A stretch of DNA of 32,000 bases from Desulfosudis oleivorans Hxd3 (GTDB taxonomy: Bacteria > Desulfobacterota > Desulfobacteria > Desulfobacterales > Desulfosudaceae), in assembly GCF_000018405.1 (NCBI RefSeq), contig NC_009943.1, positions 240,417-272,416 of the forward strand. The letters are read 5' to 3'. Below the pieces are notes generated by a model, which was not told the DNA's origin, made no database searches, and saw only the letters and a program-made list of their open reading frames with translations. Both the position numbers and the translations under genes were made by a program. Shown here piece after piece: positions 17,211-30,169 of this stretch (its first letter is position 1; the number at the start of each line of letters is the position of its first letter).

Positions 17211-17825
17211 GGAAAGGCGAACCCATGCCGGCAAAAGATAAACAAACGATCTGTGACGCCCTGGTAAAAGCGATTCGCGGGGCCCCGGTTATAATCCGGA
17301 GTTCCAGACAGCGGCGGTCTGTCTCTTCCTGATTGAAAATTTCGCGCCCTTCAGGTTCAGTCCGGTATCCGAAGGGTTCTTTGAAAACGAAGGGTCAGCC
17401 TTGCCTCGGGATGTACTTCCGGAAAAGAAAAAATCAATCGGTCGTCTTTTAATTCCCGGATCAACTGCGCGAACAGTTGCGGCCGCTTGCGGATAATCTC
17501 CTGTATGTCTTTAGAAATTTTCCCAACATAAGGTGTCAAGAAAAACAATCGGTAGTATTTATCTGGCCCATTAATGTAAATAAAACTATTTACATTGACA
17601 TTTACATTATGGCGGGGGTACTGTTGTCTCCAGATTGACAGGTTTACCAATGATGATGAACTCGTAAAAAGTCTATTTGGAATGGCAAAGTAAAAAGTTC
17701 AAGATCAAGGCGTCGCAAATCCCGAGGAATGAGGCGTACTTGTCGTACGCCGCAGTGACGAGGGGTGCAGCGCAACGCAGATATTGGGCTTTTTACGAAG
17801 CCATCAATGATCGCATGGAGGCAGC

Positions 17826-20506: not shown

Positions 20507-23500
20507 AACAAATGATCCCCCTGACAGTCAGATCCGGTTATTCGCTGATGTGGGGCACAGCCCCCATCAAGGAGGTGTGCCGCGTGGCCCGGCAGCAGGG
20601 ATATGATCGCCTGGCCCTGACCGACACGGACAACCTTTACGGGCTGTGGCATTTTCTGGACGCCTGCCGCCGGAACGATATCACGCCGGTTGTCGGGGCG
20701 GAACTTACCGACCCCGCCACAACAGACCGGGCCGTTCTTCTGGTAAAAAACCCGGAAGGCTACAAAAACCTGTGCCGGCTCATAACCGCCCGGCACCTTG
20801 AACCGGACTTTAAACTGGAAACAGCCATTGCCCGGCATGCTGATGGCCTGGCCGTGCTGACCCGCAATCCCTGCCATTTGAAGCAGTGGCATGAATCCGG
20901 TGTGGCGGTGTATGGCGCCATGCCCCGGCGGCCGATGTCGCTGTCCAGCCCGCTGTGTCAGACCGCCAGGTACTTAAATGTTCCCCTGGTGGCCACGCCC
21001 GGCAGCTTTTTTCTTTCTCCGCAAGACATGGATGCCCACCGGATGCTGCGCGCCATTGACCTGAACACCACGGTTGACAGGCTTGGCCCGTTAGAAGCGG
21101 CGCCCGGGGAAGCCTGGCTGGCATCCCCCCGGGAGTATGAGAAACGTTTTGAAGCCTGCCCGGAAGCTCTGGCCAACACCCGTCGCCTTTCGGAAACCCT
21201 GACGTTTACCGGCCCCGAATTCGGCCTGGTCATGCCCCCCTGGGAAAGCAAAACGGGCACGGACCCTGGCTCCGCCCTTCGGCAGGCCGCCTACCGGGGC
21301 GCTCAGGCGCGGTATGGCCGGGACCTTCCGGAGCCTGTCGCACGGCGCTTGGAGCACGAACTGAGTATCATTATTCAAATGCGCTTTGCCGCTTACTTTC
21401 TGGTGGTGCAAGACATTGTGCGGCTGAGCCCCAGGATTTGCGGCCGGGGATCGGGCGCGGCCTCCCTGGTGGCCTATTGCCTGCGTATCACCAATGTCTG
21501 CCCGATAAAGCACAACCTGTATTTCGAGCGCTTTTTAAACCCGGGCCGAAAGGACGCCCCGGATATTGACGTGGATTTTGCCTGGGATGAACGCGACACC
21601 GTCCTGGCAGCGGTGTTCGAGCGGTTTGGCGATCATTGTGCCATGGTCTGCAACCACGTGCGAATGCAGCCGAGAATGGCGGTCCGGGAGGTGGCCCGGG
21701 TATATGGCCTGACCGAAGCGGAAATCAGCCGGGTGACCAAAAAAATGCCGTGGTTCTGGCGGCAGGACACCGCCGGCCTGGACATCCTGCGGGAACTGTC
21801 AGAGCGCCCGGAATCCCGGGATCTGGACCTGCCCGCGCCCTGGCCCGGGATCATGGCCGTTGCCCGGAAAATCTGCGGCGCGCCCCGGTATCTTTCCGTC
21901 CATCCCGGCGGCGTGATCATCACCCCCCGGCCTGTCTGCGAATATGTTCCGGTGGAAAGGGCCGCCAAGGGTGTCCGGATTATCCAGTGGGAAAAAGACC
22001 AGGCCGAGGATGCCGGGCTGGTGAAAATCGACCTGCTGGGCAACCGGAGCCTGGCCGTGATCCGGGACGCCATTTACAACCTGCGGTCAAACAACCACTT
22101 GCTCGACGAATCCACGTGGGCGCCGGAGGACGACTTTGCCACCCAGGAGGCGGTGTCCCAGGGCAAAACCATGGGCTGTTTTTACATAGAGAGCCCGGCC
22201 ACCCGGCTGTTGCAGAAAAAGTCCCGGGTGGGGGACTTTGAACACCTGGTGATCCACAGCAGCATTATCCGGCCGGCAGCCAATGATTATATCCAGGAAT
22301 ACCTCCGCCGCCTGCACGGCGCGTCCTGGGACCCCATTCACCCGCTTCTGGCGGATGTGCTGGACGAGACCTTTGGCATCATGGTGTACCAGGAAGACGT
22401 GTCCCGGGCCGCTGTGTCCGTGGCCGGGTTTTCTCACGCCGATGCCGACGGCCTGCGCAAGGTCATGTCCAAAAAAGACAAGGACCATGTTCTGGCCGAT
22501 TTTTACCGGCGCTTTGCGGACGGGGCCGCCAAAAACGGGGTGACCCCGGAGAAGATTCGCGAGATATGGCGGATGATGATGAGCTTTTCCGGGTATTCCT
22601 TCTGCAAGCCCCACAGCGCCTCCTATGCACGGGTGTCGTTTCAGGCGGCCTGGCTCAAGACCCACTATCCTGCCGCGTTCATGGCCGCCGTAATCAGCAA
22701 CCAGGGCGGGTTTTACAGCACCTTTGCCTATGTCTCCGAGGCCCGTCGCTCCGGCATTACCATCCTGGCCCCGGACGTCAATGCAAGCGACATCCGATGG
22801 CAGGGCAACGGCAACACCATCCGGGTGGGGCTTTCTGCTGTCGGTCATCTGTCCCTTAAAACCATGGAAAAAACGCTTGCCCACCGCAAGGCCGCACGTT
22901 TTACCGGCCTGGAAGACTACATGGACCGGGTCCGGCCGGATGAGCCTGAAGCTCAGGCCCTTATTCAGAGCGGCGCCTTTGACGCGTTGTGCCCGGGCCG
23001 GTCCAGAAGCATGATCCGGTGGCAATGGGCCTGCTGGAAAAACAACCGCCCGCCAGCATCGTCCTCGCCCCTTTTGTTTGACACGGCTCCCGGGCCGGTG
23101 GTCCCGCCCCCGCAGATAACCGAAGACCCGCTGGAAAGATACCGGCAGGAGTTTTCTGTTTTGGGCTTTTTGTGTGACACCCACCCCATGACGCTGTATA
23201 AGACGGAACTGGAGGGCCGGCAGACCATCAAGGCCAAACACCTGGGCCGATACGCGGGCAAACGCGTCTGCGTGGCCGGCTGGTTGATCACCGGCAAGGT
23301 CGTGCGCACGAAAAACGGCGATCCCATGGAGTTTTTGACCTTTGAAGATGAAACCGACATCTTTGAAGCCACCTTTTTCCCAAAGACGTATACCCGGTTC
23401 TGCCACATGATCGACAGGGGAAGCCCCTTCCTCCTCTGGGGCACGGTGGAGACCAATTGGGGGGCTGTGACACTCACGGTGGAAAAAATAGAAGGCCTGC

Positions 23501-23523
23501 CGGACTACAATAACCGACTATGA
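20503..23523 (+). CDS. dnaE2: Error-prone DNA polymerase III alpha paralogue DnaE2
   Basis: 1006 aa with an N-terminal PHP domain (LTVRSGYSLMWGT, LALTDTDNLYG). Polymerase core motifs include DIDVDF, GGVII, KIDLLG, GCFYIES and FCKPHSASYA. A C-terminal OB fold is present. The GTG start overlaps the imuB stop (GTGA); an alternative ATG is at 20512. Confidence 0.9.
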   Translation: MKQMIPLTVRSGYSLMWGTAPIKEVCRVARQQGYDRLALTDTDNLYGLWHFLDACRRNDITPVVGAELTDPATTDRAVLLVKNPEGYKNLCRLITARHLEPDFKLETAIARHADGLAVLTRNPCHLKQWHESGVAVYGAMPRRPMSLSSPLCQTARYLNVPLVATPGSFFLSPQDMDAHRMLRAIDLNTTVDRLGPLEAAPGEAWLASPREYEKRFEACPEALANTRRLSETLTFTGPEFGLVMPPWESKTGTDPGSALRQAAYRGAQARYGRDLPEPVARRLEHELSIIIQMRFAAYFLVVQDIVRLSPRICGRGSGAASLVAYCLRITNVCPIKHNLYFERFLNPGRKDAPDIDVDFAWDERDTVLAAVFERFGDHCAMVCNHVRMQPRMAVREVARVYGLTEAEISRVTKKMPWFWRQDTAGLDILRELSERPESRDLDLPAPWPGIMAVARKICGAPRYLSVHPGGVIITPRPVCEYVPVERAAKGVRIIQWEKDQAEDAGLVKIDLLGNRSLAVIRDAIYNLRSNNHLLDESTWAPEDDFATQEAVSQGKTMGCFYIESPATRLLQKKSRVGDFEHLVIHSSIIRPAANDYIQEYLRRLHGASWDPIHPLLADVLDETFGIMVYQEDVSRAAVSVAGFSHADADGLRKVMSKKDKDHVLADFYRRFADGAAKNGVTPEKIREIWRMMMSFSGYSFCKPHSASYARVSFQAAWLKTHYPAAFMAAVISNQGGFYSTFAYVSEARRSGITILAPDVNASDIRWQGNGNTIRVGLSAVGHLSLKTMEKTLAHRKAARFTGLEDYMDRVRPDEPEAQALIQSGAFDALCPGRSRSMIRWQWACWKNNRPPASSSPLLFDTAPGPVVPPPQITEDPLERYRQEFSVLGFLCDTHPMTLYKTELEGRQTIKAKHLGRYAGKRVCVAGWLITGKVVRTKNGDPMEFLTFEDETDIFEATFFPKTYTRFCHMIDRGSPFLLWGTVETNWGAVTLTVEKIEGLPDYNNRL

Positions 23524-23541
23524 TGAATAAACAATTTTGTA

Positions 23542-23570
23542 TTGACAGAAGCATGCCCGGTCATGATAAT
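23542..23570 (+). promoter_or_regulatory. Near-consensus sigma70-type promoter for the PLD-nuclease gene
   Basis: TTGACA (23542-23547), a 17-nt spacer, then GATAAT (23565-23570), about 64 nt upstream of the ATG at 23634. It sits at the abrupt GC-to-AT compositional switch after dnaE2. Confidence 0.5.
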
Positions 23571-23633
23571 GGGCCGAGGTTGGGGAAAATACAGCAGCCG
23601 TATAATCAATGTTAAGCGCCATAAAGGACGATC

Positions 23634-24911
23634 ATGAGCATACAAATACTGAATAAAGATCATGGGCAGTCGGCTGGAAAGCTCATCAAGGAATTTGCGC
23701 AGACCCTTGATAGAAAAAAACAAAGAAGACATGAGCTTTGGATACTCTCATGTTATATCGATTTGGATTTAATAGAAAAATACGTTGATTATCTTCTGAA
23801 GAGTATCCGGCTGACAGAAGTCTTTTTAGCATTCAATTTCGCAGAAATCTATAAAGCAGCCCCCATTGAAACAGAAGACAAACTTAATTCCATTAAAAAA
23901 AATCTAAACGATATAAATATCAATTTTGAATGGAGGGTATTGGCCTCTTCCAAATTAGTTCACAGCAAAGGATATTCCCTAATTCAAAGATCAGGTGATA
24001 AAGTATCCGGAGGGGTCGTTCTCATAACCTCTGCGAACTTTACGAAGCCAGGATTCAAAGGCGATAATATTGAGATAGGATATGCTTCAAATAGAAAAAC
24101 GGATGTTCAAAATTTTGAAAAAACATACGATTATCTCTGGGAAAATTTGGGTGTAGATATAGGAGCAGCGATTTTCAGACAAGAAAAATATCTACTGCAG
24201 TTTGCATTGTTATCTTCTGGTTTATTTCTTCATAAATGGTCTGGAAGCTTGAGTCAGGACGTTGGTATAAAATACAAACTGACAGAACTCGCAAAAGAAA
24301 AAGGAACAATAGCTCCTGAATTGGCCGCAGTTGGATTTGAAACGGGTGATACCTTTACGAGGCAAGTTTTGCAGCTTGGCGACCTACCACAAAAGGAAGT
24401 GCCACGATCATTTATAACACGATTCACCATTGAAACTTACTGGGGGAGATGGTGCCCATCTGATGCTTGGAATACTCTCAGCGCAACATTTGAAGGAGCA
24501 AAACAATTTGTTGCACAATTCAAAGAAGCCACTAAAAAGTCTATTCTTTCAAAAATAAAAAAAGAAGCGCTTGAAATACAAAATGATCTGATTCATAAAA
24601 AGTTGATTAAGCCTGTGAAACCAGAACATTTGGATAATTGGATCCTTCGAATTCAAGAATTGCGCAATAACTATCGTCGTCTTGAACGATTTTTTACTGG
24701 ATATGAAGCACATGATCTTCCGTATTCTATTGAACAAAAGTCTGATGTTATCGACCTATTTGAAAGTATAGAAGAATCTATCGAGCTTACAAAAGCCACT
24801 AATATTGCAAAAGAAAAAATTGTGTTTGCACTAGATGATGCAAATCCTGATCTTATCAGGCTGACAGATGAAGAAAAGCAAATAATAAAAGATATGAGCA
24901 GCAGCGCTTAA
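23634..24911 (+). CDS. PLD-superfamily (single HxK motif) nuclease-like protein with a large uncharacterised C-terminal region
   Basis: SKLVHSKGYSLIQ ... GGVVLITSANFT matches the H-x-K-x4-D ... G-S-x-N motif of Nuc/BfiI-type PLD nucleases (His codon 23961-23963). About 230 C-terminal residues have no recognised motif. The gene is visibly AT-rich relative to its flanks. Confidence 0.65.
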   Translation: MSIQILNKDHGQSAGKLIKEFAQTLDRKKQRRHELWILSCYIDLDLIEKYVDYLLKSIRLTEVFLAFNFAEIYKAAPIETEDKLNSIKKNLNDININFEWRVLASSKLVHSKGYSLIQRSGDKVSGGVVLITSANFTKPGFKGDNIEIGYASNRKTDVQNFEKTYDYLWENLGVDIGAAIFRQEKYLLQFALLSSGLFLHKWSGSLSQDVGIKYKLTELAKEKGTIAPELAAVGFETGDTFTRQVLQLGDLPQKEVPRSFITRFTIETYWGRWCPSDAWNTLSATFEGAKQFVAQFKEATKKSILSKIKKEALEIQNDLIHKKLIKPVKPEHLDNWILRIQELRNNYRRLERFFTGYEAHDLPYSIEQKSDVIDLFESIEESIELTKATNIAKEKIVFALDDANPDLIRLTDEEKQIIKDMSSSA

Positions 24912-24914
24912 CAA

Positions 24915-24982
24915 CCGCATCAACTCGGACTGGGAAAAGCAGCCCCGCTTCGCTATGCTGCTTTTCCCAGCCGGTTATGCGG
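24915..24982. other. Nested inverted repeat / long stem-loop
   Basis: A perfect 14-bp stem, CTGGGAAAAGCAGC (24930-24943) pairing with GCTGCTTTTCCCAG (24957-24970), with a 13-nt loop. It is enclosed by CCGCAT (24915-24920) and ATGCGG (24977-24982). There is no adjacent T-tract, so it is not a canonical intrinsic terminator. Confidence 0.6.
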
Positions 24983-25011
24983 AGCGTTAGGTTTTAAATG
25001 TAAAAGTTAAT

Positions 25012-25036
25012 ATCTGCCCGGACACTTCCGGCAGAT
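25012..25036 (-). terminator. Possible terminator hairpin downstream of the WYL regulator gene
   Basis: ATCTGCCCGG-acactt-CCGGCAGAT (one bulged C). It is followed on the minus strand by an A/T-rich run with TTTT. Confidence 0.35.
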
Positions 25037-25128
25037 GGTAAAGCGCCCCCCGGCCAGTATTTTTATGCCCTGCAATCCAATGTTATTCCTTGCAAGCACC
25101 AACAATTCCGGAGTCGGTAGATCCCACA

Positions 25129-26121
25129 TTATTGATAACGCTTTCGAATATTCTCTGCTGCGACCTTTACCTCCTCCACCAACCAGTCCGGTGAAAGCAC
25201 CTTTACCTCGGCTCCGAAGGACATCACCCACGACACCACCTCCGGTTCGGACGAGGCGGTAAAGGTCAGCACAATCCCATCCCTTTTCTGCTCTATCTTC
25301 TGGTCCGGGCTCAGGCGCCGCTCTTCTGCAAAGGCCGCCGCATACCCGGTCAGCGACACCTCCACCTGGAAGGTCTCCTGCTTGATCACGCCAAAGGCCT
25401 GGTTGAAATGCTTTTCGAAATTGTAGGTTTTCGGAAAAACAAACTTCCGGTCCGTGGGTTCCACCGCCTTCAGCCGGTGCACGGCCAGCAGCGGGTCGAA
25501 CTCAAACTCGGTTTTCTTTGAGCCGGGATACCGGGCCATGCCCGCGTGCAGGTAAAGGGCGTTGTTGTGGGCAAACAGCTTGTAAGGCTTGATGTAAAAG
25601 GTCTTGCCTCTGCTTTCCATGGGGTTCTTATAGGTGATTTTGCACACCGTCTTTTCTTCCATGGCCTTCATCAGCACGCGAATGTCCTGCTGCCGGGGCG
25701 TGTAGTCGATGGTGCCGGGCAGAAAGGCGTCAAACAGGTCCGCGCCCGTGGCGCCGGCGGCCAGGGTGCTGCTTTTCTGAATGGCCCTTTCCGATTCCAT
25801 CAGCAGGTCTTTTCCCAGCAGGTGCCGCGTAAAGGCCAGGCACATCTGAAGCATGACCATTTCCGACGGCGACATGCTCAACGCGCCGGGCAGCTTCTCC
25901 GGCCGCTGAATATGGTAATAGCTTTTCCGGCCATCCTTGGTCTCCTCTATCGGCACATAAGCCCGGCTGATATGGTCCACCATTCGAATCACGGTCTGCT
26001 TGGAGCAATCCATCTCTTTGGCCAGGTCCACCAGGGACCGGCGCCTTCCCGTAAAATAGAGCTCGGCAAACAGCCAGATCAGGTTTTCTCCATAGGTTTT
26101 GTCCGATTTTTTTCTGGGCAT
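25129..26121 (-). CDS. WYL-domain transcriptional regulator (HTH-WYL-C-terminal extension; CapW/BrxR-like architecture)
   Basis: N-terminal HTH RSLVDLAKEMDCSKQTVIRMVDHI. The central WYL-type SH3-like domain is KITYKNPMESRGKTFYIKPYKLFAHNNALYLHA. The C-terminal segment is GAEVKVLSPDWLVEEV. It is divergent from the AAA+ gene. Confidence 0.8.
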   Translation of the reverse strand: MPRKKSDKTYGENLIWLFAELYFTGRRRSLVDLAKEMDCSKQTVIRMVDHISRAYVPIEETKDGRKSYYHIQRPEKLPGALSMSPSEMVMLQMCLAFTRHLLGKDLLMESERAIQKSSTLAAGATGADLFDAFLPGTIDYTPRQQDIRVLMKAMEEKTVCKITYKNPMESRGKTFYIKPYKLFAHNNALYLHAGMARYPGSKKTEFEFDPLLAVHRLKAVEPTDRKFVFPKTYNFEKHFNQAFGVIKQETFQVEVSLTGYAAAFAEERRLSPDQKIEQKRDGIVLTFTASSEPEVVSWVMSFGAEVKVLSPDWLVEEVKVAAENIRKRYQ

Positions 26122-26251: not shown

Positions 26252-28513
26252 ATGGCAATACCAAAACAGTTTCGACGCAAGCGGAGTATGAATATGGGGA
26301 TGAACCAAGCCTTTTTTTTCTCTCGCCCCCAGGTAGAGGACAAAAACGGACGTTTTGTTGTCAGAAAATGCTGTGACTATATGCTGCGGCTGATGGGAAA
26401 ACGATTCTCTTTAGATGCAGAGACCGTGGAGTTCATTTGCTGGCTGGTCGGTGAACAGCGAAGGGAAATCAGGAAATTCATCCTGACCCGGCTTCCGGAG
26501 GATGAGCAGGAATATTTTGATGAATTCCTCTCCCCGGATACTCATGATGACGGGATGTTTGGTATAACCATTGTGCAAACGCTGCAAATCTCAAAAGACC
26601 GAAGCATCGCCGCCGACTGCTTTCAATTTTTCAGCCAGATTTTGCAGCGCCGGCGAAAAGCACTGGCCGGCAACGGTAATTCCGGCCTGCAAAAAAGCTT
26701 TGATCAACTCCAGTCCATCTTCCGCCTCACAGACCTGGAGACGGAGCTGTGCCTTTTTCTCTTTATAATCAGCGCTTACGATACGCCGGAGAAATTTTTC
26801 GACGACCATCTGCACACAGACAGGTTTCAGGGGCGTGGTTTTCTCTGCACCGCGCTGAACGCATCCAAACATGAAATTAACCAGGCGATTGGCAAGACGC
26901 TGACGGCTGCCGGGCTGGTGGAAATTTCCGGAGGCTTTAAAAGCACCATCCGCTTGACAGATGAAGTACAAAACATCCTTTTTGATCCTGCCTGCGACAT
27001 ACTTCAGAAAACCAATTTAAAAGACGCTAAAAAACAACCGGCGCTTCCCCTGTCTTACCATTTTGTGCCGGAAGCCGATATCAGCCATATTCTTTCTCTG
27101 CTCTGCGGAAAAACCGATACCGCCACTCACATCCTCCTGTATGGCCCGCCAGGTACCGGCAAAACAAGCTTTGCGTATGGCCTTTCCCGCAAGCTGAATG
27201 ATCCGGTATATGAAATCACGCATGACAACTCCCAGGAGAATGACAGCAAAAGCCGACGCCTCTCCCTGACGGTCTCAATCAACAGCATGAACCGGGGCCA
27301 GGGCGCGATTTTTATCGTTGATGAGGCAGATAATCTGCTGAACACGGAACGCCACTGGATGATAAGCGGTGAAGTGCAGGACAAGGGCTGGCTCAATAAG
27401 CTGATGGACAAGCCGGGGCTGCGGATCATCTGGATTGTCAACGCCATCCATTCCATAGAACCGTCTGTAGCGCGCCGCTTTGCCTACAGCCGCCATTTTG
27501 AGCCGTTTACCTGCAAACAGCGGGAACAGCTCTGGGATAATGTGATCCGGAAAAATCGCTGCAAGCGTTTTTTTACCACCGAAGACCTGCGGCAACTGGC
27601 CCGGGAGTTTGATGCCAGCGCCGGTGTCATTGACATGGCCGTAAAAAAAGCAAAAGAAGCCGGCCATGCCGGCCGGGCTCCAATGCTTCAGGCGGTCCGG
27701 CAGGGGATTGAAGCCCACCAGGCCCTGGTCAATGGCGGCCATAAAAAACCCCCCAAAGAAGCAATCGATCACCGGTATTCTCTGGATGGGTTAAACATAT
27801 CCGCCGACATTCGGCAGGTAATGTTCCAGGCGGAACAATTCAGCCGGCACCTTAAAAATACCACCAATATGACCCACTATAATTTCAACCTGCTCCTTCA
27901 TGGACCACCGGGCTCGGGCAAAAGCGAATTTGCCCGCTACCTTGCGCAACACCTGGACCGGGAACTTCATGTTCGCCGCTCCAGCGACATCTTGAGCCCA
28001 TATGTAGGTGTGGCCGAAAAAAATATCCGCCAGTCATTTGACCAGGCCGCTCACCAGGGCGCTATCCTTTTAATTGACGAAGCCGACGCCCTGCTGTTTC
28101 CCCGGGCAAATGCCAGCCGCTCCTGGGAAATCAGCCACACGGCCGAACTGCTCACCGCCATGGAGCGGTTTCGCGGCCTGCTTATCTGCACCACCAACCG
28201 GCTGAACGGAATAGATTCTGCCGCCATCCGGCGATTTAACCATAAAATCAGATTCGACTTTCTCACGCCGGACGGCAGCTGGATCTTTTACAACAAAATG
28301 CTGACACCCCTGGCAAAACTCGCGCCGGATGACCGGAACATCAAGACCGTCAAAAACCTGCGCCGCCTGACCCCCGGTGATTTTAAGATCGTCCGGGACC
28401 GCTTTGCCTTTTATCCGAAAGAAGAGATCACCCATACCATGCTGGTTGACGCCCTGGGGCAGGAAGCCACCGTCAAACAGCAGCAAACAGGAGAAAAGCC
28501 GATTGGCTTTTAA
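26252..28513 (+). CDS. Tandem AAA+ ATPase with an uncharacterised N-terminal region of about 290 aa
   Basis: AGGAGG RBS lies 7 nt upstream. Module 1 has Walker A LLYGPPGTGKT (nt about 27143-27166), Walker B IFIVDEAD and VARRF. Module 2 has Walker A LLHGPPGSGKS (nt about 27902-27925), Walker B ILLIDEAD and the SRH-like TTNRLNGIDSAAIRRF. Confidence 0.85.
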   Translation: MAIPKQFRRKRSMNMGMNQAFFFSRPQVEDKNGRFVVRKCCDYMLRLMGKRFSLDAETVEFICWLVGEQRREIRKFILTRLPEDEQEYFDEFLSPDTHDDGMFGITIVQTLQISKDRSIAADCFQFFSQILQRRRKALAGNGNSGLQKSFDQLQSIFRLTDLETELCLFLFIISAYDTPEKFFDDHLHTDRFQGRGFLCTALNASKHEINQAIGKTLTAAGLVEISGGFKSTIRLTDEVQNILFDPACDILQKTNLKDAKKQPALPLSYHFVPEADISHILSLLCGKTDTATHILLYGPPGTGKTSFAYGLSRKLNDPVYEITHDNSQENDSKSRRLSLTVSINSMNRGQGAIFIVDEADNLLNTERHWMISGEVQDKGWLNKLMDKPGLRIIWIVNAIHSIEPSVARRFAYSRHFEPFTCKQREQLWDNVIRKNRCKRFFTTEDLRQLAREFDASAGVIDMAVKKAKEAGHAGRAPMLQAVRQGIEAHQALVNGGHKKPPKEAIDHRYSLDGLNISADIRQVMFQAEQFSRHLKNTTNMTHYNFNLLLHGPPGSGKSEFARYLAQHLDRELHVRRSSDILSPYVGVAEKNIRQSFDQAAHQGAILLIDEADALLFPRANASRSWEISHTAELLTAMERFRGLLICTTNRLNGIDSAAIRRFNHKIRFDFLTPDGSWIFYNKMLTPLAKLAPDDRNIKTVKNLRRLTPGDFKIVRDRFAFYPKEEITHTMLVDALGQEATVKQQQTGEKPIGF

Positions 28514-28678: not shown

Positions 28679-30169
28679 ATGCACAATCACACCCCCCGCA
28701 TCTCCAAATCCCAGTACCTTCGTGGCCTGCAGTGCCCCAAGTCCCTTTGGTATTACCGCCACCGCCCGGACCTGGCCCCGGAAACCCCACCCGGCCGCCA
28801 GGCCCTGTTTGACGCCGGCCACGAGGTGGGCGTGCTGGCCCAACAGTATTTTAAAACCGGTATCGAGATCACCGAAGACTACCTGGCAACCGACAAGGCC
28901 ATCTGCTCCACGCAAAAAGCGGTTGCCGATGGCCACATTCATATCTTTGAAGCCACGGCCGCAGCCCCGGATGGCGCGTTCTCCAAAATCGATATCCTGA
29001 AAAAGGTCGGCAAATCCGACGCCTGGGACCTGGTCGAGGTCAAGATGTCCACCGGCGTCAAGGATTACCACGTAGACGACATGGCCCTTCAGCGCCATGC
29101 CTTTACCGGCGCGGGCTACAACATTCGAAAATCGATCCTCATGCACATCAACAACCAATATGTCCGGTCCGGAGACCTGGACCTTTTGGCCCTGTTTACC
29201 CTGGCCGACTGTACAGAGCAAGTCACCTCCCGGCTGGCCGACGTTGACGGCCATGTGGCCCGGCTCCTGGACGTCATCCGGCAACAAAAAGAGCCGGACG
29301 TGGCCCCGGGCGACCACTGCTTTTCCCCCTTTGAATGCGACTATACCGGCCACTGCTGGCCCACCCATCCACCCCGGTCGGTTTACGACCTTTTCCCCAC
29401 TGGCCCGAAGCTTAACGCCCTTCTGGCCCGGGACATCACCCTGATCAGCGAAATCCCCGACGATTTTCGCATGACAAACCGCCAGCAGGTGCTGGTCCAA
29501 GCCTGCAAAACCGGCCAGGTGCAGCTCGACCCGGCCAAAATCCAGAAGTTTCTTTTGTCTTTAAAATACCCGCTCTATTTTCTTGATTATGAAACCATAA
29601 ACAATGCCGTGCCCCTGTTTGACCGCACCCGGCCCTATCAGCAGGTGCCGTTTCAGTTTTCCCTTCATGTTCAAAACGAAAAAAACGGCCCGGTCAACCA
29701 CGTGGAGTTTCTTTCCACCGAAAAAACAGACCCCCGGCCGGCCTTTATTGAAAAACTGATCGCCCACTGCGGCACCAAAGGCTCGGTCATCGTTTACAAC
29801 AAGGCTTTTGAAAAGCGGATCAACGACGAACTGGGCCGGGACTTTCCCCAGTTCAAACCGGCCTTAAACCGCATCTCCACCCGCATGGTCGACCTGCTGG
29901 TGCCCTTCCGCTCCCGCCACCTCTACCACCCGGACATGAACGGCTCAGCCTCATTAAAAAGCGTGCTCCCCGCCTTTGTGCCCCACATGCGCTACGACAC
30001 CCTTGAGATCAGCGACGGCGGCGCCGCAGCCCAGCTCTACTTAAGCTGCCTCAAAGACGCTCTTCCCGCCGAAGAACAGCAGAAAGTTTTTGATAACTTG
30101 CGCGTCTACTGCGGGCAGGACACCCTTGCCGAGGTAAAGCTGCTGGAGGTAATGTACGGGCTGGTGTAA
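28679..30169 (+). CDS. Cas4/RecB-like PD-(D/E)XK nuclease fused to a DUF2779 domain
   Basis: The N-terminus SKSQYLRGLQCPKSLWY is typical of DUF2779 proteins. Nuclease core is FEAT...IDILKK...WDLVEVK. Four Cys (GLQC plus HCFSPFECDYTGHC) resemble a Cas4/AddB-type Fe-S cluster. C-terminal DUF2779 hallmarks are YFLDYET, RPYQQVPFQFSLH, VYNKAFE and SASLKSVLPA. Confidence 0.75.
   Translation: MHNHTPRISKSQYLRGLQCPKSLWYYRHRPDLAPETPPGRQALFDAGHEVGVLAQQYFKTGIEITEDYLATDKAICSTQKAVADGHIHIFEATAAAPDGAFSKIDILKKVGKSDAWDLVEVKMSTGVKDYHVDDMALQRHAFTGAGYNIRKSILMHINNQYVRSGDLDLLALFTLADCTEQVTSRLADVDGHVARLLDVIRQQKEPDVAPGDHCFSPFECDYTGHCWPTHPPRSVYDLFPTGPKLNALLARDITLISEIPDDFRMTNRQQVLVQACKTGQVQLDPAKIQKFLLSLKYPLYFLDYETINNAVPLFDRTRPYQQVPFQFSLHVQNEKNGPVNHVEFLSTEKTDPRPAFIEKLIAHCGTKGSVIVYNKAFEKRINDELGRDFPQFKPALNRISTRMVDLLVPFRSRHLYHPDMNGSASLKSVLPAFVPHMRYDTLEISDGGAAAQLYLSCLKDALPAEEQQKVFDNLRVYCGQDTLAEVKLLEVMYGLV

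Follow-up and report, generated by a model that had tools for sequence, protein, structure and literature searches.

What does the AT-rich gene that follows dnaE2 in Desulfosudis oleivorans Hxd3 encode, and how did it come to stand there? This question was addressed in a window of 32,000 nucleotides (RefSeq assembly GCF_000018405.1, contig NC_009943.1, positions 240,417 to 272,416 of the forward strand), which is the whole stretch of DNA analysed and to which the coordinates below refer unless a locus (L number) or genome (G number) is given. The gene starts 110 bp 3' of lexA-DUF72-imuB-dnaE2 and has the same orientation; no terminator-like site was found in between. Its product of 425 amino acids (aa) is a single-motif (HKD) member of the phospholipase D (PLD) superfamily, predicted to be a cytoplasmic nuclease. 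Based on the comparisons described below, we regard an autonomous homodimeric nuclease directed at foreign DNA as the best reading of this PLD gene, with a probability of roughly 0.55. The gene probably defends against phages or plasmids, and its product may do so through a restriction-like or an abortive-infection activity.

Predicted PLD nuclease domain

The gene, its ribosome-binding site and the N-terminal domain of its product are as follows.

23634 to 24911, plus strand: ORF (open reading frame) of the 425-aa PLD protein, GC content 0.364, with about 100 full-length homologues
23625 to 23628, plus strand: AGGA ribosome-binding site, 5 nt 5' of the ATG, as read from the sequence
23634 to 24158, plus strand: PLD-fold nuclease domain (residues 1 to 175), assigned from Foldseek, Pfam and the invariant catalytic residues
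23961 to 23963, 23967 to 23969 and 24036 to 24038, plus strand: codons of the catalytic residues H110, K112 and N135, to which the alignment adds S133 and E147

A word-indexed search returned about 100 homologues, nearly all of about 425 aa. A preliminary description of the locus, made from the letters alone, had pointed out a single PLD motif, HSKGYSLIQ...ITSANFT; it is indeed present, with the catalytic set intact and a PLD fold predicted around it. H110, K112, S133, N135 and E147 were invariant in an alignment of 35 close homologues as well as in 49 distant homologues, down to about 20% identity. They make up the whole catalytic set of single-motif PLD nucleases, and its retention indicates that selection keeps the enzyme active. 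The family lacks the Asp of the classical HxK(x)4D motif and has Ile or Val, then an invariant Gln118, in its place. An AlphaFold2 model computed from the alignment had a pLDDT of 88.9. When its N-terminal domain was compared with the PDB using Foldseek, the best match was the NgoAVII R-protein (4rct, E = 3.9e-6), and the probability was 1.00 for 4rct, NucT (6ehi), Zucchini (4gel), SauUSI (7clg) and Nuc (1byr). At an E-value of 0.01 or below, 29 of the 35 members matched PLDc_2 of Pfam and 19 of the 35 matched RE_NgoFVII, the cut-off of the latter being exceeded by two distant members (30.3 and 24.5 bits); sequence searches of the PDB, whether by the full-length profile or by the N-terminal domain on its own, yielded no meaningful match. 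The protein sequence shows no visible membrane segment or signal peptide.

Family-specific C-terminal domain

24159 to 24908, plus strand: family-specific C-terminal domain (residues 176 to 425) with the signature GxFxHxW ... GxWxP

The C-terminal half, in which the preliminary description had recognised no motif, likewise gave no match in scans with Pfam, NCBIfam and PADLOC or in a PDB sequence profile search. When residues 176 to 425 were modelled on their own from 18 sequences of the loci, the AlphaFold2 model (pLDDT 89.1, pTM 0.77) consisted of a small region of beta-sheet and, after it, a helical bundle. The Foldseek check proposed earlier for this half was run on this model, and neither the PDB (best E = 0.76) nor BFVD (best E = 1.1) contained a convincing fold relative. 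The C-terminal profile alone matched 226 clusters among 1.84 billion representative proteins, and all full-length matches among the 150 listed carried the domain at about residues 170 to 430 of proteins of 400 to 450 aa. The position behind the PLD domain is thus fixed, with no other architecture among the matches listed, and the C-terminal domain is therefore specific to the family. A second, degenerate PLD lobe was considered for this half and rejected: two-lobed PLD enzymes aligned over one lobe, and the C-terminal model had no PLD fold.

Insertion site

23542 to 23570, plus strand: sigma-70-like promoter TTGACA-N17-GATAAT, matching 11 of 12 consensus positions and the best match of the region
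23611 to 23617, plus strand: GTTAAGC, the proposed left cassette junction (G|TT), fitting the core-site consensus of integrons, GTTRRRY

A sharp drop in composition directly after dnaE2, also noted in the preliminary description, was confirmed by windowed GC content, which was 0.58 to 0.62 in dnaE2, 0.36 to 0.41 in the PLD gene and 0.54 downstream. The value for the gene (0.364) compares with 0.562 for the genome of 3.94 Mb (z = -3.8), and 0.58% of equal-sized genome windows were as low. The promoter TTGACA-N17-GATAAT stands 5' of the ORF as described, with 11 of 12 consensus positions; its attribution to the PLD gene as the gene's own promoter was wrong, since it belongs to a block shared at 97% identity with a genome of the same genus that lacks the gene. 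In this congener (G403), the 97% identity extends over window positions 20902 to about 23600, a segment comprising the end of dnaE2 and the promoter. The similarity is high up to 23599, weak up to GTTA (23611 to 23614) and at random level beyond, and G403 carries GTTACAA at the offset of GTTAAGC in the window. Behind the same promoter, G403 has a 247-aa ORF, hsdM, hsdS, a DUF1016/YhcG nuclease and an N-terminal fragment of HsdR (L049:5370-11181). As the promoter is conserved in G403 in front of other cargo, it is therefore resident and was not brought by the PLD gene. Two congeners thus carry different defence genes at this site 3' of the SOS mutagenesis operon. The far end of the G403 contig maps to a distant place in the window's genome, which may reflect genomes rearranged at this hotspot or a chimeric contig.

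Candidate gene cassette

24906 to 24992, plus strand: attC-type site of 87 nt, folding at -49.8 kcal/mol (z = -7.5)
24906 to 24912, plus strand: R'' GCTTAAC, fitting RYYYAAC and containing the TAA stop codon
24986 to 24992, plus strand: R' GTTAGGT, fitting GTTRRRY, 7 of 7 positions pairing with R''

The 3' end of the PLD gene overlaps a strong hairpin, which was compared with the attC consensus of R'' (RYYYAAC) and R' (GTTRRRY) enclosing a hairpin of 57 to 141 nt. It consists of an unpaired spacer of 2/3 nt, an L box of 6 bp and a terminal stem of 14 bp, and its single-base bulges, at positions 16, 20 and 24, are confined to the ORF-proximal arm, where C, T and A on the top strand correspond to G, A and T on the bottom strand. 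The hairpin thus has the full set of features by which integron attC sites are defined, and its extrahelical bases agree with those described for attC_oxa2 (G16/A20/T24) and VCR2 (G16/T20/T24; PMC5027507). A REP-type repeat was rejected as the identity of the hairpin, which is essentially unique in the genome, and Rfam gave no match in 23400 to 25200. At the closest PLD homologue, DNA similarity (75%) starts exactly at the ATG and stops 25 nt past the stop codon.

From its boundary sequences, the PLD gene appears to have arrived as an integron-style gene cassette, putatively 23612 to 24986, through what we infer to be an IntI-mediated event. It shares with integron cassettes a promoterless ORF, the R''/R' pair, the unpaired spacer, bulges at 16, 20 and 24, a variable terminal stem and a position behind an external promoter; it differs from them in that neither an integron integrase nor an array is found here and that most other members of the PLD family lack an attC. 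A preprint contains the statement that integron cassettes carry many compact defence genes (bioRxiv 10.1101/2024.07.02.601686). In this genome, we take the PLD gene to be accessory cargo, a promoterless ORF with its attC placed behind a strong resident promoter 3' of lexA-DUF72-imuB-dnaE2. An attC in a genome without an integron integrase would also illustrate how a defence gene can move as a cassette to a promoter-proximal chromosomal site.

A second, shorter hairpin (CTGCCCGGACACTTCCGGCAG, 25005 to 25035) lies between the attC-like site and the stop codon of the convergent gene downstream, which encodes a WYL regulator. It is followed by a T-rich run on the minus strand and may be the terminator of the WYL gene.

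Patchy distribution and defence or mobile contexts

The PLD gene occurs in three of the 401 sampled genomes of its class. The sample included six further genomes of its own family, none of which carries it. Among 185,579 species genomes, a pattern scan detected 12 loci, from Beta-, Gamma-, Alpha- and Deltaproteobacteria and from Fibrobacteraceae, and family members were also found on two Planktothrix plasmids. At 17 of 18 loci, the GC content of the gene was below that of its flanks, by up to 0.29. The horizontal acquisition suggested earlier is thus borne out by the patchy occurrence, by the low GC content in 17 of 18 loci and by a site that holds other cargo in a congener. A phage origin was considered and rejected, as neither 50,697 phage records nor IMG/VR contained a match. 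In the literature searched on WYL/PLD/AAA loci, on PLD genes embedded in BREX and on NgoAVII or PLD proteins in defence islands, no description of this family was found.

An accessory setting had been expected, and homologues were indeed found in defence or mobile contexts of other genomes. A BREX-1 operon on a plasmid of Planktothrix agardhii (NZ_LR882946.1) carries the gene for a 526-aa member between pglZ and brxL (L050:7992-9572); this protein matches the family with an hhalign probability of 99.8%, and both domains align. In other loci, the PLD gene stands among a type IIG restriction-modification gene, a NOV_C protein, DrmD and DruE (L010), adjoins type I restriction-modification and GmrSD (L007), or is accompanied by IS1595, HEPN-AbiU2 and SLFN (L006), by PIN toxin-antitoxin pairs (L011), or by an integrase and transposases with an AddAB-like pair upstream (L009). 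None of the three outcomes that the preliminary description had named as speaking against its proposal (a known C-terminal family, absence of the catalytic geometry, homologues never in accessory regions) was observed.

No methyltransferase adjoins the PLD gene in the window, and those near its homologues at other loci are parts of complete separate systems. A conserved small partner gene of the antitoxin or immunity type was not found either: the ORFs beside the PLD gene in WYL-linked loci were unrelated by BLAST, and the other ORFs beside it had no Pfam match. These observations bear on the proposal of a toxic or selfish gene, for instance one for an abortive-infection toxin or an addiction gene, or of a PLD protein that acts on lipids or nucleotides and not on nucleic acid. 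The toxin-antitoxin-rich neighbourhoods would fit a toxic element, the fold matches include PLD2/3, phosphatidylserine synthase, FAM83 and MITD1, and a match to AIPR_N (E = 0.05) was seen at residues 341 to 384. This match was not significant, however, and the proposal is at odds with the lack of a conserved partner and of a visible membrane segment or signal peptide; moreover, the best fold and Pfam matches belong to the restriction-nuclease branch of NgoFVII and NgoAVII. We consider this the least probable of the explanations weighed here.

Several smaller features of these neighbourhoods were noted. In the same Planktothrix BREX-1 operon, a VapC toxin gene lies between brxC and pglX. Just 5' of the PLD gene of Aquimonas, an 87-aa ORF (L007:7693-7956) shares 55% identity with the C-terminal end of a 322-aa NOV_C protein (L010:7794-8033; weak PADLOC match to PD-T4-1). 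In L010, the gene of this NOV_C protein precedes the PLD gene by about 1 kb. Relatives of this 87-aa/NOV_C type are a second recurrent neighbour of the PLD gene within the sub-clade of L007 and L010.

Proposed mode of action and comparison with known systems

The dimerisation, nuclease activity, substrate and defence role that we infer for the PLD protein would combine as follows. Two copies would pair through their N-terminal domains, so that two sets of H110, K112, S133, N135 and E147 form one metal-independent active site. Cleavage of the phosphodiester backbone would pass through a phospho-histidine intermediate, and in this the protein would resemble Nuc, BfiI and the NgoAVII R-protein. 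The C-terminal domain of 250 aa may pick the substrate or gate the activity. Because the gene usually travels without a methyltransferase or an antitoxin, discrimination of self from non-self is most likely to reside in this C-terminal domain, as in type IV enzymes and in the END nucleases that sense modified phage DNA. A more far-reaching version, which is tentative and on the whole doubtful, is that the C-terminal domain is a sensor with a new fold, which would respond to a phage trigger or to DNA that is foreign or modified, on a portable plug-in effector that acts alone, has also been repeatedly recruited into WYL/AAA+, BREX-1 and DISARM- or Druantia-type islands and travels between genomes in the form of an integron-type cassette, also where these have no integron.

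The closest parallel is offered by the END nucleases, which are encoded by single genes, combine a BfiI/NgoAVII-type PLD domain with a C-terminal sensor derived from an inactivated EndoIII and have no methyltransferase (Yee et al. 2025, PMC12191111). Found within defence islands, they confer restriction of phages whose DNA is hypermodified, and neither PADLOC nor DefenseFinder detects them; their PLD domain is combined with various C-terminal sensors (PMC12191111). The window family resembles them in having one gene, an N-terminal HxK PLD domain of the BfiI/NgoAVII type followed by a non-catalytic C-terminal domain and no cognate methyltransferase, in its location in defence islands and in being missed by PADLOC; unlike them, it lacks the EndoIII/Ogg1 (HhH-GPD) domain. 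No HhH-GPD or OGG match of Pfam was obtained in any of 35 members, and neither EndoIII nor Ogg1 appeared in the listed 50 best PDB matches of Foldseek.

R.NgoAVII, R.CglI and BfiI are restriction enzymes in which a PLD nuclease is joined to a B3-like DNA-binding domain (PMC4267654, PMC4267653). The window protein agrees with NgoAVII and BfiI in its best N-terminal match (4rct), in the layout of a nuclease followed by a C-terminal domain and in a homodimeric active site, which is presumed here. It has no B3-like pseudobarrel, however, and although the PLD domain alone superposes on 4rct, the whole chain does not (TM score 0.30, root-mean-square deviation 21 A). Unlike in the NgoAVII and CglI systems, no methyltransferase or DEAD-family N-protein adjoins the PLD gene in the window.

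With Nuc, NucT and Zucchini, the protein shares one HxK...SxN...E set per chain and the PLD fold (target-normalised TM scores of 0.5 to 0.65). Whereas these enzymes have 150 to 200 aa, are secreted or membrane-anchored and carry no extra domain, the window protein is predicted to be cytoplasmic and has an extension of 250 aa. The hairpin between the HxK and SxN strands appears to exceed that of Nuc by about 8 residues. Among multi-gene defence systems, DrmC of DISARM and further PLD accessories are similar in that a PLD nuclease stands among helicase and methylase genes of defence, as next to DrmD in L010 and in the Planktothrix BREX-1 operon. DrmC differs, however, in having no such C-terminal domain, and the window protein scored 16.2 bits with NCBIfam NF038319 against a cut-off of 133; neither DrmA nor DrmB was found in the window.

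Judged from its sequence and from these comparisons, the protein is a predicted PLD nuclease whose C-terminal domain is new and specific to the family; it fits the modular pattern of END and stands outside the END, BfiI/NgoAVII and DrmC classes. Nucleases that join a PLD cutter to a swappable sensor stop phages with heavily modified DNA, as END does, and are useful for detecting modified genomes; if active, this family, which was missed by the versions of Pfam, NCBIfam and PADLOC used, would add a new recognition module to the toolkit. Its occurrence in BREX and beside WYL/AAA+ genes bears on how defence systems acquire extra effectors.

The WYL/AAA+ neighbours

25129 to 26121, minus strand: WYL-WCX transcription regulator (Pfam WYL and WCX), convergent with the PLD gene
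26252 to 28513, plus strand: double-AAA+ ATPase (Pfam AAA in two stretches; IetA-like in PADLOC)
28679 to 30169, plus strand: DUF2779/Cas4-like nuclease (Pfam DUF2779; weak PADLOC match to Cas4)

The WYL, AAA+ and DUF2779 proteins of the window and diverged homologues were used in tblastn against all PLD loci. Homologues of the WYL protein were found beside the PLD gene in L001, L007, L018, L025, L058/L069, L064 and L072, those of the AAA+ protein in L001, L007, L018, L058/L069, L064 and L066, and those of DUF2779 in L007 and L025, so that, with the window included, about 9 of 31 distinct loci had a WYL and/or AAA+ gene within 10 kb. The order is WYL>PLD<AAA in L001 and AAA<|WYL>PLD in L064. 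In Aquimonas (L007), it is AAA<|WYL-315aa-DUF2779-87aa-PLD, the genes abutting or overlapping and a gap of 44 bp preceding the PLD gene, and in Rhodoferax (L018) the co-directional series WYL-261aa-AAA-292aa-PLD. In a maximum-likelihood tree, the linked loci were scattered and required four changes of state. The association of the PLD gene with WYL/AAA+ genes appears to be far above chance, yet optional.

A PLD protein that is not autonomous, being one of the effector nucleases of a WYL-regulated double-AAA+ module with or without DUF2779, activated together with the module or handled by it and working in that context only, would account for the linkage in about 9 of 31 loci (the window, L001, L007, L018, L025, L058/L069, L064, L066 and L072) and its spread over the family tree with four changes of state, for the co-directional clusters of L007, with its 44-bp gap, and L018, and for the WYL gene lying directly 5' of the PLD gene on the same strand in L001, L025 and L064. 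It is less easily reconciled with the roughly 22 of 31 loci that have no WYL/AAA+ neighbour, among them L010, which is unlinked though its close relative L007 is linked, or with relatives of the window genome that carry WYL and AAA genes without a PLD gene. No operator common to the regions upstream of PLD and the WYL/AAA intergenic regions of five loci was found except a 10-mer that overlaps the -10 box of the window. As in WYL-regulated defence loci of the BrxR and CapW type (PMC9122601, PMC11662680), a wHTH-WYL-WCX gene adjoins the nuclease gene in several PLD loci, often directly 5' on the same strand; no shared operator was detected 5' of the PLD gene, and the window genes are convergent. 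In the window, the PLD gene has a separate upstream promoter, a GC content of 0.36 against 0.50 to 0.57 and cassette boundaries, and it therefore arrived separately from the WYL/AAA+ genes. We consider an obligate module unlikely. The stand-alone character proposed in the preliminary description is nevertheless upheld only in part, by the majority of loci (about 22 of 31) without WYL/AAA+ genes, and not by the approximately 9 of 31 that adjoin them, two of which are co-directional.

The same neighbourhood, together with the SOS operon, raises the further alternative of a phosphodiesterase of the DNA damage response or repair, which would act on adducts or damaged ends by a Tdp1-like logic and be expressed with the SOS operon, under a WYL damage sensor, or both. 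The position of the gene 110 bp behind lexA-DUF72-imuB-dnaE2 on the same strand, without a terminator-like site between, would suit such a role, and so would the AddAB-like pair upstream of the PLD gene in L009, the WYL orthologues that in relatives lie beside a UvrA paralogue and an AddAB-like pair, and the presence of Tdp1 among the Foldseek matches. WYL regulators of such a type sense single-stranded DNA or DNA damage according to what one report sets out (PMC11662680). The Tdp1 matches were weak, however (E about 3e-3), and covered one lobe. A repair enzyme would be expected to be less patchy than 3 of 401 genomes of the class and none of the six other sampled genomes of the family, and a foreign composition in 17 of 18 hosts would be unexpected for it. 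Adjacency to SOS genes is peculiar to the window genome, the contexts elsewhere being BREX, restriction-modification, toxin-antitoxin and IS elements, and a palindrome 5' of lexA is not repeated at the PLD promoter. A repair function is thus very unlikely. The palindrome (17574 to 17595), which is perfect (ATGTAAAT-N6-ATTTACAT) and is followed by a further TTTACAT copy, is likely a LexA box of the lineage.

Several findings weigh against an autonomous nuclease that acts on foreign DNA and arrived as a cassette. As regards the protein, the Pfam scores of the window member are below threshold (PLDc_2 20.5 against 27; RE_NgoFVII 19.2 against 23.8), PADLOC and NCBIfam scans gave a trivial DrmC match alone, and the C-terminal domain is unlike any known reader of DNA or modified bases, a sensor role being assigned by analogy. 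Strict autonomy is opposed by the pairing with WYL/AAA+ genes in about a quarter to a third of loci and by the two loci (L007 and L018) in which the PLD gene ends a co-directional cluster. As regards the cassette, the attC is a lone one without an array, this hairpin being the 1 of 138 R''/R' pairs in the genome that has attC geometry. No integron integrase was found in the genome: the best TIGR02249 match reached 86 bits against a cut-off of 265, and such matches are generic tyrosine recombinases. No convincing attC was found at other loci of the family, save a weaker candidate in L025, from the same order. Finally, G403 is a metagenome-assembled genome with 6% contamination and provides different cargo at the same site but no clean empty site, and a part of its contig (L049:1-3365) matches G000:C1:3103198-3106599, 2.8 Mb from the window, at 92% identity.

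The WYL regulator at other loci

Homologues of the window WYL protein (68 to 76% identical) lie beside a UvrA paralogue, and not beside an AAA+ ATPase, in L038 (L038:6649-17860) and L039 of the genomes G092 and G014. The same WYL genes are also accompanied by a DUF4172-Fic protein and by an AddAB-like pair of a PD-(D/E)XK protein and a UvrD-type helicase. This arrangement suggests that the regulator family may serve modules of the DNA-damage type too.

In L018, an element of about 30 nt (AATACTGTCGCAA...GCGACCATGAG) occurs in the gap between the WYL gene and the 261-aa ORF and in that between the 261-aa ORF and the AAA gene (L018:1874-1904 and L018:2772-2802). It may be the operator of the module and is absent 5' of the PLD gene of L018. 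In the genome G124, a WYL-AAA+ pair is followed on its 3' side by genes for a 185-aa HEAT-repeat protein and a 795-aa protein resembling the alpha subunit of Pol III (L040:13410-16420). The latter is 24% identical to DnaE2 of the window and is another link of the WYL-AAA+ module to DNA polymerase genes.

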